30,355 nt of DNA from an uncultured Erysipelotrichaceae bacterium. GTDB lineage: Bacteria > Bacillota_I > Bacilli_A > RF39 > UBA660. Shown here piece after piece: positions 113-17,950 of this stretch. How positions within the stretch are numbered: position 1 is the stretch's first letter; every line of letters begins with the position of its first letter. The DNA lies in contig CADBMU010000082.1 of NCBI GenBank assembly GCA_902795845.1, forward strand, positions 1 to 30,355, read 5' to 3'. The position numbers were made by a program, and so were the translations under genes. The notes beneath the pieces are model-generated. The model made no database searches. It had not been told where the DNA came from and saw nothing but the letters and a program-made list of their open reading frames with translations.

Positions 113-3119
<3,007 letters not shown>

Positions 3120-3129
3120 GAGGTTAAAT

Positions 3130-5574
3130 ATGGATAGAATAAATCAAAAGAATATAGTTGAAGAAGTACAAGATTCATTCCTTGATTATTCAATGAGTGT
3201 TATTGTTGCTCGTGCTTTACCAGATTTAAGAGATGGTTTAAAACCAGTTCATCGTAGAATTTTATATTCAATGTTTGATAGTGGTTATACTCCTGATAAA
3301 CAATATCGTAAATGTGCAAGAGTTGTTGGGGATGTAATGGGAAAATATCATCCACATGGTGATTCTTCAATTTACGAAGCTTTAGTACGTATGGCCCAAG
3401 ATTTTAGTTATAGACATATGTTAATAGATGGTCATGGTAACTTTGGTAACATGGACGGTGATGGAGCCGCTGCTATGCGTTATACCGAATCAAGACTTTC
3501 TAAAATATCTCTAGAATTATTAAGAGATATCAAGAAAGATACTGTTGATTTTATACCAAATTTTGATGAAACTGAAAAAGAACCATCAGTTTTACCAAGT
3601 AGATTTCCAAATATCTTAGTAAATGGTACTATGGGTATAGCAGTTGGTATGGCAACAAACATACCACCTCATAATTTAGGTGAAACAATTGATGCTTGTG
3701 TAGCATACATAGATAATCATGATATAACAATTTCAGAAATGATGGAATATATTAAAGGTCCAGATTTCCCTACTGGAGGTATAATTTTAGGAAATAGCGG
3801 TATTAAAAAGGCTTATGAAACTGGTAGAGGTACAATAACTATTAGATGTAAAGCCACTATTGAAGAAGGCAATGGACGTAGTAAAATTGTTATTTCAGAA
3901 CTTCCTTATGGTATTAATACACTAGATTTAAAAACAAAAATAGGTGAATTAGTAAGAGATAAAGTTTTAGAAGGAATAGCTGATTATCATGATGCAACTA
4001 GTATTGAAAAAGGTGTTAATATAATTATTACCTTAAAAAAAGAAGCTAATGCTAATGTTGTATTAAATAATTTGTATAAACATACTGCTTTACAATCAAC
4101 TTTTGGTATTATTTTCTTGATGCTTGATAATGGAACACCTAAAACTTTAAATATTAAAGAAATAATTTCAAAATATATTGATTATCAAAAAGAAATTATT
4201 ATTAGAAGAACAAAATTTGATCTTAATAAAGCTGAAGAAAGAGTTCATATTTTAGAAGGTTATAAAATAGCACTTGATAATATCGATGAAGTTATTAAGA
4301 TTATTAAAACAGCTGAATCAGACGTTATTGCTCGTGAAAATTTACAAAAACGTTTTGGTTTATCTGAAATTCAAGCCAATGCTATTTTGGAATTAAAACT
4401 ACGTAGATTAACAGGTTTAGAAAGAGAAAAAATAGAAAGTGAACTTGCTGAGTTGTTAAAAACTATTGAAGAATTAAGAAGTATCTTAGCAAGTGAAGAA
4501 AAAGTACTTGAAATAATTAAAAATGAATTGTTAGATATTAAGAATAAATATGCAGATCCTAGAAGAACAACAATTGATATGTCTGCAATTGAATATATTG
4601 AGGATGAATCTTTAATTCCTGAACAAGATATAATGATTGCTTTAACAAATAAAGGATATATTAAGAGAACTACTTCTGATACATTTAAGTCTCAGAAACG
4701 TGGTGGTGTAGGTGTTAAAGGTATGAATACTAATGAAGAAGACTTTGTTGAACAAATTATCAACACTTCTACACACGATTACATCTTATTCTTTACTAAT
4801 AAAGGTAAAGTTTATAGAATTAAAGGTTATGAAATACCTGAATTTAGTAGACAATCTAAAGGTATTCCTATTATTAACATATTGCAAATAGAAAAAGATG
4901 AAAAAATCAATTCTATGATAAATGTTAAGAAAGACGATGAATATAAATACATCTTATTTGCTACTAAAAAAGGTATTGTTAAGAAAACTAATATAAGCGA
5001 ATTTGAAAATATAAGAACTTCAGGTAAGATAGCAATTAGTCTTAAAGAAACTGATGAATTAATATCTGTTAAAAAGACAACAGGTGATGATATGATTCTT
5101 ATGGGTTCAAATGACGGCCGTATGGTTAAGTTTAATGAAAAAGAGATAAGAGTCATGGGAAGAACTGCAAGTGGCGTTAGAGGTATTAATTTAGGTGATT
5201 CTGAGTGTATCGGAGCAGAAGTAACAACTGAAGACGATAAAATCTTAATTGTATCAAAGAAAGGTTACGGAAAACAAACAAATGTATGTGAATATAGAAC
5301 TACTAAGCGTGGTAGCAAAGGTGTAAAAGCTTTAAATATCACAGATAAAAATGGTAAACTTGCTACATTTAAAATTGTAACTGAAGATAAAGATGTAATT
5401 ATTGTTACTGATACAGGAATGATTATTAGAATGCCACTTGATCAAATTTCAACTCTAGGTAGAGTTACTCAAGGTGTTAAGTTAATTAATCTAAAAGATA
5501 ATCAACAAGTTTCTACAATGAGTTTAATTGATAAAAATGAAGAAACAATTGAAGAAGAAACTACAAATGAATAA
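3130..5574 (+). CDS. gyrA: DNA gyrase subunit A
   Basis: [22 protein letters not shown], catalytic AAMRY and GyrA-box QKRGGVG. SD AGGAGG at 3118-3123 supports ATG 3130. Confidence 0.98.
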
Positions 5575-5577
5575 TAA

Positions 5578-5593
5578 TGTTTCACGTGAAACA
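5578..5593. promoter_or_regulatory. parS: parS site 1 (perfect palindrome 5576-5595)
   Basis: aaTGTTTCACGTGAAACAtt; starts 3 bp after the gyrA stop codon. Confidence 0.93.
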
Positions 5594-5602
5594 TTGTTTA
5601 AG

Positions 5603-5639
5603 AGAATAGAATTTTAATTATAGATTCTATTCTTTTTTT
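5603..5639 (+). terminator. intrinsic terminator of gyrA
   Basis: AGAATAGAAT (5603-5612) pairs with ATTCTATTCT (5624-5633), followed by a T run. Confidence 0.8.
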
Positions 5640-5679
5640 GAATTAATATTTTTTAAATATTTCAAATATAATATATCTA

Positions 5680-5695
5680 TGTTTCACGTGAAACA
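5680..5695. promoter_or_regulatory. parS: parS site 2 (palindrome 5675-5700)
   Basis: atctaTGTTTCACGTGAAACAtagat. Confidence 0.93.
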
Positions 5696-5842
5696 TAGAT
5701 TTTTTAAGTAAAATAGTAAATATTTCTACACATTTGATATATTAAATTATTTAAATATGAAAAATATTAGTTTATTTAAAATACAAATTATTTAATACAT
5801 GATTAAGATTTAATTATTACCAATGATATCAATTATTTTATA

Positions 5843-5858
5843 TGTTTCACGTGAAACA
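5843..5858. promoter_or_regulatory. parS: parS site 3 (palindrome 5838-5863)
   Basis: ttataTGTTTCACGTGAAACAtataa. Confidence 0.93.
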
Positions 5859-5948
5859 TATAATTAATTTTAAAATGATAATTAAATATATATGTTAAGA
5901 ATTAATATTTTTTTATAAATTATTAATAAAAAATAATAGAAAAAACAA

Positions 5949-5964
5949 TGTTTCACGTGAAACA
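5949..5964. promoter_or_regulatory. parS: parS site 4 (palindrome 5946-5967)
   Basis: caaTGTTTCACGTGAAACAttg. Confidence 0.93.
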
Positions 5965-6065
5965 TTGCATAAATTAAAAATATAATATAAAAAAAATCAA
6001 AATAATAGTACATAAACTACTTTAGTAAATAAAATATTAAATTATTTAATTTAAGGTGAGATTAA

Positions 6066-6081
6066 TGTTTCACGTGAAACA
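6066..6081. promoter_or_regulatory. parS: parS site 5 (palindrome 6060-6087)
   Basis: gattaaTGTTTCACGTGAAACAttaatc. Confidence 0.93.
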
Positions 6082-6177
6082 TTAATCAAAAAAATATATT
6101 TTATAAAATATCAATTTAAAAAATAATAAATAATTACAATATGAATATTAATGTTAATATGATATATGAAATAACAA

Positions 6178-6193
6178 TGTTTCACGTGAAACA
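6178..6193. promoter_or_regulatory. parS: parS site 6 (palindrome 6175-6196)
   Basis: caaTGTTTCACGTGAAACAttg. Confidence 0.93.
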
Positions 6194-6204
6194 TTGAATA
6201 TTAC

Positions 6205-6233
6205 TTGAAAAAAAAATAATAATTTGATAATCT
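6205..6233 (+). promoter_or_regulatory. sigma-A promoter of the SRP RNA gene
   Basis: TTGAAA (6205-6210), 17 bp, TAATCT (6228-6233) preceded by TG at 6225-6226. Predicted TSS ~6240 matches the 5' end of the RNA stem. Confidence 0.7.
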
Positions 6234-6239
6234 AATAAC

Positions 6240-6310
6240 GTGCAACAAATATATTGTAAATTGGTCAGGATTGGAAAATAGCAGCCACATCAATCTCTAT
6301 TTGTGTGCAC
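6240..6310 (+). ncRNA. ffs: small-type signal recognition particle RNA (4.5S-like)
   Basis: Helix-8 signature GGTCAGG-ATT-GGAA-AAT-AGCAGCC; closing stems GTGCA/TGCAC, ACAAATA/TATTTGT and ATTG/CAAT; T7 tract follows; lies next to tadA-dnaX like Bacillota scr/ffs. Confidence 0.85.
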
Positions 6311-6329
6311 TTTTTTTATGGTGATGAAT

Positions 6330-6746
6330 ATGGAAGATAAAATAATAAAAGAACTAATAAAACTTTCTAATAAAGCATTAAAAAAGAAAGAAGTTCCTGT
6401 ATCAGCAATTATTACTTGTAATGATAAAATAATTGTCAAAGCTTATAATAAGAGAGAAAGAAAGAACGATGTACTTGGACATGCAGAAATTTTATGTATA
6501 AGAAAAGCTTCAAAAAAACTTAAAAATTGGAAGTTAACAAAATGCAACCTGTATGTAAGTTTAAAACCCTGCAGTATGTGTCAAGAGATAATAAAACAAG
6601 CAAGAATTGAAAATGTTTTTTATTTATTAGAAAAGCCAGAATCAAAAAAAGAATATAATAATACTAATTTTATAAAAGTAGAAAATATTAAAAATAAAGA
6701 ATTTAAACAAATGCTTTCATTATTGTTTATAAGTAAAAGAAAATAA
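6330..6746 (+). CDS. tadA: tRNA adenosine deaminase TadA-like nucleoside deaminase
   Basis: EVPV, HAE and PCSMC zinc motifs; upstream of dnaX. Start moved to ATG 6330 (SD GGTGA at 6320) because the GTG at 6303 lies inside the SRP RNA. Confidence 0.85.
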   Translation: MEDKIIKELIKLSNKALKKKEVPVSAIITCNDKIIVKAYNKRERKNDVLGHAEILCIRKASKKLKNWKLTKCNLYVSLKPCSMCQEIIKQARIENVFYLLEKPESKKEYNNTNFIKVENIKNKEFKQMLSLLFISKRK

Positions 6747-6818: not shown

Positions 6819-8411
6819 ATGGAATACAAAGTTTTATATAGAAAATATAGACCTGATAATTTTAATAATATAGTCGGTCAGGATTATACAATAACAATAT
6901 TAAAAAATGCTATAATTAATAAAAAAATAGCTCATGCATACATATTTAATGGCCCAAGAGGAACGGGAAAAACAAGTACAGCTAAAGTATTTGCTAAAAC
7001 AATTAACTGTGAAAATCCCCAAAATGGTGAAGCTTGTGGTAAGTGTAATTCTTGCTTAAATATTAAAAATAATCCAGATATAATTGAAATTGATGCTGCT
7101 TCAAATAACGGTGTTGATGAAATAAGAGAATTAATCAATAATATCAAAATAGCGCCATCATACAGTAAATATAAAGTGTATATTATTGATGAAGTTCATA
7201 TGATGACACAAAGTGCTTTTAATGCTTTATTATTAACTCTTGAGGAACCACCAGAACATGTAGTGTTTATATTAGCAACAACTAATATAGAAAGTGTTCC
7301 AATAACTATATTATCAAGATGCCAAAAATTTGATTTTAAAAAAATTAGTAATGAAGTAATAAAAGATAGAATTAATTATATATGTAAAGAAGAAAAAATT
7401 AATATAACTCCAGAAGCTGTTGATGAAATAACATATTTATCTGAAGGTGGAATGCGAGATGCCTTAAGTATTTTGGATCAATTATCTTCTGATACAAATA
7501 ATATTGATATAGATTTAATAATAAATAATTTTGGATCTGTCCCAAATATAGTTATTGATAATATAATTAGTGCAGTTGAAGATAATGATTTAAATATCAT
7601 TAAAGATAATATTAATAAAATGAAAAATAGTAATGTTGATTATAAAGTGTTTATAAAAAAAATGATTGATAAGTTATCTTTAAAAGCTTTTAGTAATGAT
7701 AATAAAATTTCGCTAGATAAAATAAAAAATTTAGTGTTTGATTTAGTAAAAATTATTAATAATTATAATATAAATATAAATCCATTTATTCTTATAGAAT
7801 TAACTCTTTTAGAATACTTAGATAATGAAAATATTGTAACTGATAAGAAAGAGGAAAATACAAAAATTATTTCCCGGGAAATAATTTTGGATGAAAATAA
7901 ATCTCAAGAAAAAGAAAAAAATGAAGAAAATAAAACTAATATTTCTAAAAATAATAACGAATTTGTTAAAATAAGAATGAATAATTGTTTTGTAAATGCA
8001 AAAAAAGAATCTTTAAAATTTGCTAAAGAAAATTTAAAAAAGATAATTGAAAATAATTTAGATAATACTTTTTTAAATTCTATGTTAATTGATTCTTCTG
8101 TAGTAGTAGCATCTGATGATATTTATATATTATCTTGTAAATTAGATAGTACTGTAAATTTGATAAATTTAAATAAAACAATGATAGAAGAAAAATTAAA
8201 TAATGTTAAAATTGCAGCAATTACTGATGATGAATGGCTTTCAGAAAAACAAATATATATAAATAATATAAAAAATGGTTATAATTATGAAATAAAACCA
8301 GAAATAGAAGAAAATAATAAAACAATTAAGAAAGAAGAAAAAATAATAGAAGATTCAATTGAAGATATAGCAGAGAAAATATTTTCAAATGATAAAATAG
8401 AAATAGAATAA
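6819..8411 (+). CDS. dnaX: DNA polymerase III subunit gamma/tau
   Basis: LYRKYRP, Walker A GPRGTGKT, zinc Cys cluster, EIDAASNNGVD, IIDEVHM, SRC; SD GGGTGA before ATG 6819. Confidence 0.96.
   Translation: MEYKVLYRKYRPDNFNNIVGQDYTITILKNAIINKKIAHAYIFNGPRGTGKTSTAKVFAKTINCENPQNGEACGKCNSCLNIKNNPDIIEIDAASNNGVDEIRELINNIKIAPSYSKYKVYIIDEVHMMTQSAFNALLLTLEEPPEHVVFILATTNIESVPITILSRCQKFDFKKISNEVIKDRINYICKEEKINITPEAVDEITYLSEGGMRDALSILDQLSSDTNNIDIDLIINNFGSVPNIVIDNIISAVEDNDLNIIKDNINKMKNSNVDYKVFIKKMIDKLSLKAFSNDNKISLDKIKNLVFDLVKIINNYNININPFILIELTLLEYLDNENIVTDKKEENTKIISREIILDENKSQEKEKNEENKTNISKNNNEFVKIRMNNCFVNAKKESLKFAKENLKKIIENNLDNTFLNSMLIDSSVVVASDDIYILSCKLDSTVNLINLNKTMIEEKLNNVKIAAITDDEWLSEKQIYINNIKNGYNYEIKPEIEENNKTIKKEEKIIEDSIEDIAEKIFSNDKIEIE
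7868..7883. promoter_or_regulatory. Noc-binding site (NBS), perfect, inside dnaX
   Basis: TATTTCCCGGGAAATA matches the Bacillus Noc consensus; palindrome extends to 26 bp (7863-7888). Confidence 0.8.
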
Positions 8412-16177: not shown

Positions 16178-16375
16178 GAATTTAGCAATGAAGGAAAGAG
16201 TAGATAACGTAGTTTTGTAGAGAGTTAATGGTTGGTGAAAATTAACAAATGAAATTATTGAACATGGTTCTGGAGTTAAAACGTTTAATTCGCGTTAAGA
16301 ATAAAGTGTATGAATAATTCATAAACTAAGGTGGTACCGCGGAAAATTTCCGTCCTTAGATTTATGAATTTTTTT
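16178..16375 (+). ncRNA. T-box riboswitch, Met (AUG) specifier
   Basis: Stem I elements GGAAAGAGTAG, AGAGAG and GGTTGGTGAAA; specifier GAAC-ATG-G (ATG at 16264-16266); T-box AAGGTGGTACCGCG (16328-16341); terminator arms 16316-16331 and 16354-16370 plus T run; upstream of metG. Confidence 0.93.
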
Positions 16376-16394: not shown

Positions 16395-17933
16395 ATGGAA
16401 AGTAAAGGAAAATATTATATAAGTACAGCTATAGCTTATACATCTGGTAAACCACATATTGGAAATACATATGAAATTGTATTAGCTGATGCAATTGCAA
16501 GATTTAAAAGATTACAAGGATATGATGTTTATTTTCAAACTGGTACTGATGAACATGGTGAAAAAATAGAATTAAAAGCTAAAGAAAAAGGTATTGAACC
16601 AAAACAATTTGTTGATGAAGTTTCTACAGAAATTAAAAGAATTTGGGATATAATGAATACAAGTTATGATAAATTTGTAAGAACTACTGATACAAATCAT
16701 GAAAAAGTTGTTCAACATATATTTAAAATAATGTATGAACAAGGAGATATTTATAAAAGTGAATATAAAGGATTATATTGTACTCCTTGTGAATCTTTTT
16801 GGACAGAATCTCAATTAGTAGATGGAAAATGTCCTGATTGTGGAAGAAATGTAGAAACTAAAAGTGAAGAAGCATATTTCTTTAAATTATCTAAATATCA
16901 AAAAAGATTAGAAGATTATATAGAATCTCATCCAGATTTCATCCAACCAGTGGCTAGAAAAAATGAAATGTTAAATAATTTTATTAAACCTGGTCTTCAA
17001 GATTTATGTGTTTCAAGAACATCATTTAAATGGGGTATACCTGTAGATTTTGATTCAAAACACGTAGTATATGTATGGCTTGATGCTTTAACAAATTACA
17101 TTACTAATATTGGTTATGATGTTGATAATGAATCAGAAGAATTTAAAACAAAATGGCCAGCTGATTTGCATTTAATAGGAAAAGATATAATAAGATTTCA
17201 TACTATTTATTGGCCATGTTTTCTAATGAGTTTAGGTCTAGAGATGCCTAAACAAGTTTTTGGTCATCCTTGGTTAATTATGGCTGATGGAAAAATGAGC
17301 AAATCAAAAGGTAATGTAGTATATGCTGATGATTTAGTAGAAGAATTTGGTGTTGATGCTGTAAGATATTATTTCTTACATGAAATTCCATTTGCATCTG
17401 ATGGGGTATTTACTAAAGATTTATTAATTGAAAGAATTAATGGTGATTTAGTTAATATTTTAGGAAATTTAATAAATAGAACAGTAAGTATGAACTTTAA
17501 ATATTTTGATGGTGTAATAGAAAATCCAAATATTGAAGAAGAATTAGATAAAGACTTAAAAAATAATGTTCTTTCATTAAAATCTAAAGTAGAAAATAGA
17601 ATGAATGAATTAAAAGTTGGTGAAGCAATTGAAGAAATCTTCGAAGTTCTAAGAAAATGTAATAAGTATATTGATGAAACAATGCCATGGAGTTTAGCAA
17701 AAGACGAAGATAAAAAGGATAGATTAAAAACAGTTTTATACAATTTATTAGAAAGTATTCGTATTTGTGCAGTATTATTACAACCATTTATGCCTGAAAC
17801 AAGTGAAAAAATATTTAAACAATTGAATACATCTATTTCAGATTATGATTCAATAAATGAATTTGGTGCTTTAGAACAAGGAAAAACTTTAAATGAACCT
17901 ACTCATTTATTTGATAGAATCGATACAAAATAA
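16395..17933 (+). CDS. metG: methionine--tRNA ligase (short MetG1 type, no C-terminal tRNA-binding domain)
   Basis: HIGN, CTPC/CPDC knuckle, 'YVWLDAL', 'GKDIIRFH', KMSKS. Confidence 0.97.
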   Translation: MESKGKYYISTAIAYTSGKPHIGNTYEIVLADAIARFKRLQGYDVYFQTGTDEHGEKIELKAKEKGIEPKQFVDEVSTEIKRIWDIMNTSYDKFVRTTDTNHEKVVQHIFKIMYEQGDIYKSEYKGLYCTPCESFWTESQLVDGKCPDCGRNVETKSEEAYFFKLSKYQKRLEDYIESHPDFIQPVARKNEMLNNFIKPGLQDLCVSRTSFKWGIPVDFDSKHVVYVWLDALTNYITNIGYDVDNESEEFKTKWPADLHLIGKDIIRFHTIYWPCFLMSLGLEMPKQVFGHPWLIMADGKMSKSKGNVVYADDLVEEFGVDAVRYYFLHEIPFASDGVFTKDLLIERINGDLVNILGNLINRTVSMNFKYFDGVIENPNIEEELDKDLKNNVLSLKSKVENRMNELKVGEAIEEIFEVLRKCNKYIDETMPWSLAKDEDKKDRLKTVLYNLLESIRICAVLLQPFMPETSEKIFKQLNTSISDYDSINEFGALEQGKTLNEPTHLFDRIDTK

Positions 17934-17934
17934 A

Positions 17935-17950
17935 TATTTCCCAGGAAATA
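17935..17950. promoter_or_regulatory. Noc-binding site variant, also terminator-like hairpin
   Basis: TATTTCCCAGGAAATA (one mismatch to the NBS), extended AAA/TTT (17932-17953), followed by a T run. Confidence 0.65.

Follow-up and report, generated by a model that had tools for sequence, protein, structure and literature searches.

Six identical parS sites in a compact array between gyrA and the SRP RNA gene: a predicted single chromosomal centromere

In most bacteria, parS sites are clustered within 5–40 kb, and scattered sites are peculiar to a few lineages, including some Bacilli; clustering limits collisions of SMC (PMC8357415). The Spo0J-parS system of Bacillus subtilis comprises 10 sites, 8 of them near oriC, over ~0.75 Mb (PMC7022226, PMC8357415), the four strongest being 5, 13, and 39 kb apart, and the five strongest sites of Caulobacter crescentus lie within 5 kb, at ~8 kb from ori (PMC5815017). 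In Myxococcus xanthus, 22 parS repeats occupy ~3 kb of DNA, 4 kb upstream of parA (PMC3899335). Reviews treat as open both why the number of parS sites varies and what drives their clustering (PMC7333895, PMC5815017).

Here, we analyze a stretch of 30,355 nucleotides, hereafter called the window, which is an entire contig (C82) of a metagenome-assembled genome (MAG). It carries six perfect parS sites with a total footprint of 616 bp between gyrA and the small SRP RNA gene, ffs. The six sites are the sole parS locus that we found in this incomplete assembly, and we put the probability at roughly 85% that they constitute a single chromosomal centromere, the predicted loading point for ParB and SMC, a reading that derives from sequence comparison. 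Dense parS clusters are already known. What is unusual here is the class in which the array occurs, its position between gyrA and ffs and far from parAB, the perfect identity of its sites, and the dynamics of its copy number. The original prediction, made from the window alone, had likewise held that clustered parS is not without precedent, for which the M. xanthus array (PMC3899335) is the example, and had set the array apart from the dispersed sites of B. subtilis, a contrast that agrees with the literature (PMC8357415).

The M. xanthus array resembles the present one in being a dense, origin-proximal chromosomal array with a mean spacing of ~100–140 bp that accounts for nearly every site in its genome. 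However, it belongs to another phylum and a 9.1-Mb genome, lies beside parAB and 35 kb from oriC, and consists of sites with a variant consensus, not all of them perfect, whereas the six sites described here are identical and perfect and lie between gyrA and ffs, ~78 kb from soj-spo0J (as measured in the nearest relative), in a genome of ~1.2 Mb. C. crescentus shares the single tight cluster near the origin, at a similar distance (~7–8 kb), where it serves both ParABS segregation and SMC loading, but the present array is ~8 times denser, wholly intergenic, and made up only of perfect consensus sites. B. subtilis is of the same class, uses the same 16-bp consensus, and has the closest ParB homologue, and its Soj, SMC-ScpAB, and Noc paralogue all have counterparts here. 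Its parS sites, in contrast, are scattered, often intragenic, and often imperfect, whereas here all sites fall in one intergenic array.

The sopC centromere of plasmid F is built from tandem 43-bp repeats, each with an inverted repeat that is bound by SopB. Its head-to-tail iteron architecture is shared by the arrays of two relatives of the window (L041, with a 40-bp unit, and L086, with a 53-bp unit). Unlike sopC (mentioned in PMC3597684), the locus described here lies on the chromosome and is built on the universal chromosomal parS, and the array in the window lacks homology outside the site cores. Our literature searches on parS arrays in RF39, Mollicutes, and Erysipelotrichales returned nothing relevant.

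The family to which the window belongs offers a natural series for both questions raised in the reviews, with one fixed locus bearing 0–14 sites in dozens of species, and with arrays that at one extreme are fresh tandem repeats and at the other are so old that the cores alone survive. A lineage inside the Bacilli, a class known for scattered parS, with a predicted single-point centromere would fit the idea that clustering avoids SMC collisions (PMC8357415). In practical terms, the array marks the origin region in gut MAGs and explains the frequent contig breaks just after gyrA.

The parS array and its boundaries

The window contains exactly six perfect copies of TGTTTCACGTGAAACA, at start-to-start distances of 102, 163, 106, 117, and 112 bp (Table 1). 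The number expected by chance in the window is 0.14, and none of 100 shuffled sequences reached six. The 16-bp palindromic consensus of chromosomal parS, TGTTNCACGTGAAACA, is matched exactly by 6/6 sites, and the rest of the window holds no additional match to TGTTTCACGTGAAACA, even with three mismatches allowed. Six exact copies at these coordinates and distances in the gap between gyrA and the SRP RNA gene, and no further parS in the 30 kb, is just what had been proposed.

Table 1. Coordinates of the parS sites, the genes and signals that bound the array, and a nearby Noc-binding site (NBS) in the window.
Feature	Position	Strand	Remarks
gyrA, upstream boundary of the array	3112..5574	+	NCBIfam NF004043, 1173 bits
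parS 1	5578..5593	.	In gyrA 3' UTR, before the terminator; starts 4 nt past the gyrA stop codon
gyrA intrinsic terminator	5600..5639	+	15-pair AT-rich hairpin followed by a U-run; conserved in the nearest relative (L028)
parS 2	5680..5695	.	Within a 26-bp perfect palindrome (atcta...tagat)
parS 3	5843..5858	.	Within a 26-bp perfect palindrome (ttata...tataa)
parS 4	5949..5964	.	Within a 22-bp palindrome (caa...ttg); G5950T in one independent strain (run X5)
parS 5	6066..6081	.	Within a 28-bp perfect palindrome (gattaa...ttaatc)
parS 6 (anchor site)	6178..6193	.	11 nt upstream of the inferred ffs -35
Inferred ffs promoter	6205..6233	+	-35 TTGAAA 6205-6210, 17-nt spacer, TG-extended -10 TAATCT 6228-6233
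Small SRP RNA gene (ffs), downstream boundary of the array	6229..6327	+	Rfam RF00169, 57.4 bits
Perfect NBS TATTTCCCGGGAAATA	7868..7883	.	Inside dnaX; outside the parS array

The ffs promoter was placed from an alignment of 36 relatives, and an alternative pair of hexamers (TTGAAT at 6194, with an AATAAT whose last base is 6223) is present as well. At the other boundary, the hairpins of parS 1 and of the gyrA terminator (5573–5639) have a joint MFE of -23.6 kcal/mol, with a z of -6.3.

Several other identities of the locus were considered and rejected. Its anatomy alone, with 16-bp palindromic repeats and AT-only spacers of ~100 bp, speaks against a CRISPR. None of the six sites (0/6) is an NBS, which excludes a set of Noc sites, and no DnaA box (TTATCCACA, up to one mismatch) occurs within 5575–6300, which excludes a cluster of the oriC type. 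Nor do the hairpins form a set of terminators, as a T-tail follows 31% of the palindromes compared to 27% of control positions, so that such tails are not enriched; the separate hairpin at 5600–5639 is the only one with the look of a terminator, that of gyrA. A constant head-to-tail unit, as in a sopC-like plasmid iteron, is likewise lacking: TRF reports no repeat on the scale of the array in the window, and the copies have nothing but their cores in common.

The nearest relative in our set (locus L028, contig C1 of the human gut MAG G004) has a GyrA that is 99% identical and gyrA DNA that is ~97% identical to those of the window, and it too carries six perfect sites, spaced by 111, 168, 105, 99, and 108 bp. 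This bears on whether the array might have arisen in assembly, as an artefact or through collapse or expansion of a repeat, the failure for which the original prediction had allowed. De Bruijn assemblies often break at these sites; pig-gut contigs (X7) that tile the stretch stop at parS sites, and the contigs of several relatives break off within the array. However, one contig assembled in an independent study (run X5) bridges 5300–6500 in one piece, with the single substitution listed for site 4, the contig from the source study is identical, and the same six sites recur in the nearest relative. Collapse or expansion is further unlikely because the spacers are unique. Between the X5 contig, the X7 tiling, and the nearest relative, we consider an artefact excluded for all practical purposes. 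In the part of the raw reads of run X24 that was read, the only matches were to parS cores of other organisms, the present one being absent there. Near-identical DNA is present in bovine, pig, and other gut metagenomes. Among the MAGs of relatives, the array is a frequent contig end, with the break inside it or just after it (L031, L043, L044, L056, L062, L064, L080, and L105).

Genomic context and ParB paralogues

The MAG comprises 844 kb in 112 contigs, is 69% complete, has a GC content of 24.6%, and uses the standard bacterial code. The relatives of the window are uncultured gut Bacilli, with names that include "Tenericutes", CAG:582, Candidatus Ventrenecus, Onthocola, and Coprovivens. Candidatus Coprovivens, assigned to family CAG-1000 of order RF39 (PMC8035907), has a GyrA with 72–73% identity to that of the window. 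The host is probably a member of a low-GC, uncultured lineage of gut Bacilli with reduced genomes, close to order RF39.

The gene order recF-gyrB-gyrA-[array]-ffs-tadA-dnaX-ybaB-recR-holB-ricT is that of the right flank of the Bacillota origin region. In the nearest relative, whose genome is 92% complete, dnaA lies at 220999–222324 and the array at 229682–230288, such that the array starts 7.4 kb past the end of dnaA. Judged from the recF-gyrB-gyrA context together with this distance, the array is origin-proximal. The remainder of the 844-kb, 69%-complete assembly holds no other parS with up to two mismatches, and only ten poor, scattered matches appear at three mismatches. All six sites with at most one mismatch in the nearest relative fall in its array, and one site with two mismatches lies elsewhere. 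The uniqueness of the array in the present species thus rests partly on relatives.

On contig C53, a gene for a 267-aa ParA/Soj stands directly upstream of one for a 300-aa ParB (P0002), giving adjacent Soj and Spo0J. P0002 matches B. subtilis Spo0J (PDB 6SDK) with an E-value of 4e-61 and has a GERR CTP motif of the GxxR type at residue 98 and an N-terminal KRKALGRGL peptide. In ParB proteins that bind parS, R173 and G201 (Caulobacter numbering) are invariant, and K or R is found at position 184 in 28% (PMC7383237). At the equivalents of positions 173, 179, 184, and 201, P0002 reads R-M-K-G, with R170 and G198 at the outer two positions, and so conforms to the RxxG pattern of the parS type. 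SMC, ScpA, and ScpB are all encoded in the genome as well. The genome-wide scan for parS, parB, soj, and smc that the original prediction had proposed therefore finds the array to be the only parS locus in the assembly and the protein kit to be present. The assignment of the sites to canonical ParB/Spo0J parS is upheld by the exact consensus along with the cognate Soj, RxxG-type Spo0J, and SMC-ScpAB. No parS lies inside the spo0J gene. In the nearest relative, soj-spo0J is found at 142344–142874 of contig C1, ~78 kb from both dnaA and the array; the usual origin-adjacent noc-soj-spo0J block is not kept there, and the Noc-like gene alone stays by dnaA.

This second ParB paralogue, P0001, is a Noc-like protein of 487 aa, encoded on contig C20 of the MAG (G000; L006:97–1560, minus strand). 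Its gene follows rsmG and, in the nearest relative, lies 2 kb upstream of dnaA. The specificity residues, Q-K-N-R, are of the Noc type, the profile score of 290 bits is just below the Noc cut-off of 315, and the C-terminal extension of ~280 aa is of low complexity and rich in N, E, and D. The perfect NBS inside dnaX and a one-mismatch NBS at 17935–17950 are the only two NBS in the 844-kb assembly, and they are the likely targets of P0001. Loci of the same genus (L028, L029, L030, L032, and L090) retain the dnaX site. A T-box leader at 16179–16360 (RF00230, 116.8 bits) lies upstream of a 512-aa ORF at 16395–17933.

Variation of the locus among relatives

Comparison with the nearest relative separates the site cores from the DNA between them. 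None of the 96 core bases has changed (0/96), whereas 93 of 494 aligned spacer bases differ (~19%; 8–33% for individual spacers), in addition to indels. Third codon positions of gyrA differ by 7.9%, so spacer divergence equals or exceeds that at synonymous sites. With the cores unchanged and the spacers changing fast, selection (or, with lower probability, conversion) appears to maintain the cores, and the spacers appear to evolve freely. Gene conversion could account for core identity in place of selection on each copy.

The original prediction had described the spacers as non-coding, with ~12% GC in the longest; the value for that spacer is 11.6%, and only AT-rich junk ORFs of up to 43 aa were found. 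Overall, spacer GC is 10% (5.6–11.9%). For crude intergenic segments of the genome, the 5th percentile is 14%, so the spacers fall lower still, which might argue that the low-melting spacers are themselves functional, be it as an unwinding element, bent DNA, or an entry site for gyrase or SMC. Four-fold degenerate sites in the genes of the window, however, have a GC content of 6%, so that unconstrained DNA is expected to be about as AT-rich here as the spacers are, which fits mutational equilibrium. Other intergenic regions look GC-richer, presumably owing to promoters, ribosome-binding sites, terminators, and RNA genes. The rapid divergence and indels seen against the nearest relative, the family-wide range of site spacing from 40 to 600 bp (with spacers of 24 to >500 bp in relatives), and the lack of DnaA boxes noted above also speak against a structural role. 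A Rayleigh-type test of family spacings for helical phasing at periods of 9–12 bp gave a best p of ~0.05 at 10.5 bp, which is uncorrected and in the wrong phase. We therefore consider functional spacers highly improbable, and this part of the original prediction is not borne out. Within the window, the spacers share no array-scale homology with one another.

To place the array in its family, we searched species-representative genomes with GyrA and obtained 80 loci with 72–99% identity. In most of these related species, parS follows gyrA directly; two of the 80 loci show no parS even at two mismatches, and both of these contigs end at or just past gyrA. Upstream of gyrA, 626 kb of sequence from the family loci contains no parS at all. 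We scored 65 loci as complete, that is, reaching 1 kb or more past the last site, and allowed one mismatch in the counts. At least two sites are present in 51/65, at least three in 39/65, and at least five in 20/65, with a maximum of 14 and with every one of these arrays placed directly after gyrA, while eight of the complete loci have a single site. The comparison across related MAGs, another step that had been proposed, thus reveals copy-number variation from 0 to 14 sites in the loci scored. Eight genomes (G015, G006, G016, G018, G010, G012, G013, and G024) have every parS listed for them in one cluster per genome, and two further family members that lack a strict match (G008 and G023) contain clustered GTTCCACGTGGAAC variants and both ParB paralogues. 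The proposal that this lineage has consolidated its centromere at one locus gains support from this family-wide arrangement and from the uniqueness of the locus in the assembly.

The spacing of sites in the family is bimodal, with modes of 40–59 bp and 90–130 bp, the window belonging to the second. The 40-bp unit of L041 is repeated 13.5 times at 95% identity, and in L086 the 53-bp unit recurs 10.8 times. Since such tandem repeats are seen in these two arrays and none in the window, we infer that arrays arise by tandem duplication and age until the cores alone remain. In other families of the class, one or two parS sites occupy the corresponding position, either following gyrA or preceding tadA-dnaX, which indicates that the position is older than the amplification.

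Both in the window (5566–6205) and in L029–L107, every parS lies in a longer perfect palindrome of its own, with flanking letters that are specific to each site. The palindromes extend beyond the 16-mer by 2, 5, 5, 3, 6, and 3 bp for sites 1–6 of the window. The extension averages 3.13 bp over 186 sites whose flanks are distinct, compared to 1.75 ± 0.07 bp after random re-pairing of flanks. When flanks were re-paired only within arrays, using those with at least three sites, the extension beyond the near-invariant A..T pair was 2.38 bp compared to 0.72 ± 0.06 bp, and 0/5000 permutations reached the observed value. Such covariation within arrays is not what a ParB dimer with a symmetric preference for flanking bases would produce. 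The pattern instead suggests hairpin-templated (template-switch) mutation or selection for extrusion. Calculated DNA hairpin energies are -5.5 to -9.5 kcal/mol.

A model for the array and alternative readings

We propose that dimers of the 300-aa ParB/Spo0J bind each 16-bp palindrome, close into CTP clamps, and slide onto the flanking DNA, which would give rise to a single partition complex ~7–8 kb to the right of oriC. Soj would act on this complex, and the complex would in turn load SMC-ScpAB. Six nucleation sites in 616 bp would multiply the rate of ParB loading while still presenting one loading point, and a single point would avoid the SMC collisions that scattered sites cause. The locus probably dates back to the ancestor of the family, with the ffs promoter as its anchor point, and grows and shrinks by tandem duplication. 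The duplications in the window would be old, their spacers having drifted to neutral AT-rich sequence with selection holding only the cores.

The ~78-kb distance between soj-spo0J and the array in the nearest relative counts against this model. A single parS is enough in model organisms (PMC7022226), so that any gain from six copies is presumptive. The same finding lends some weight to a different account, in which only the promoter-proximal anchor site is needed and the other five are neutral, minisatellite-like duplicates kept identical by gene conversion. The range of 0 to 14 copies among related species, the eight complete loci with one site, and the active duplication evident in the young tandem arrays would all sit well with it. 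Nevertheless, the spacers of the window have lost every trace of repeat homology and yet the six cores are perfect, with the 0/96 to ~19% disparity described above, and conversion tracts confined to 16–26 bp would be unusual. Retention of three or more sites in 39/65 species points the same way, and we judge it unlikely that a single site is all that is needed. The position of the anchor site raises another possibility. In 45/67 loci, the last parS ends 30–43 nt before the 5' end of ffs, that is, 2–13 nt upstream of the -35, whatever the size of the array, and ffs is present after the array in 10/10 loci scanned with Rfam. That this placement persists despite a fast turnover of spacer indels, and that parS 1 begins just beyond the gyrA stop codon, could mean that the array mainly serves transcription, with ParB at the last parS and at parS 1 regulating or insulating ffs or gyrA. 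B. subtilis Spo0J, though, has no effect on the genes beside its parS sites (PMC7022226), regulation would not require up to 14 copies, and the adjacency may mean no more than that an old anchor site lies next to a constrained promoter. Together with the lack of T-tail enrichment, these points render a mainly transcriptional role decidedly unlikely, and a centromere with one loading point is the reading that we prefer.

A wider reading, which we offer tentatively and consider rather doubtful as a whole, would join the centromere model to the evolutionary data. The centromere would resemble a plasmid iteron array, with a quickly evolving copy number that tunes the loading of ParB and SMC through tandem duplication and contraction. 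Its anchoring at the SRP RNA promoter would be functional, and the palindrome extensions would reflect parS hairpins or cruciforms in vivo, arising through template-switch growth or selection for extrusion. If true, such hairpins or cruciforms in vivo would be a property not described before for parS. At the ffs promoter of some sister clades, an NBS stands in the place of the last parS.
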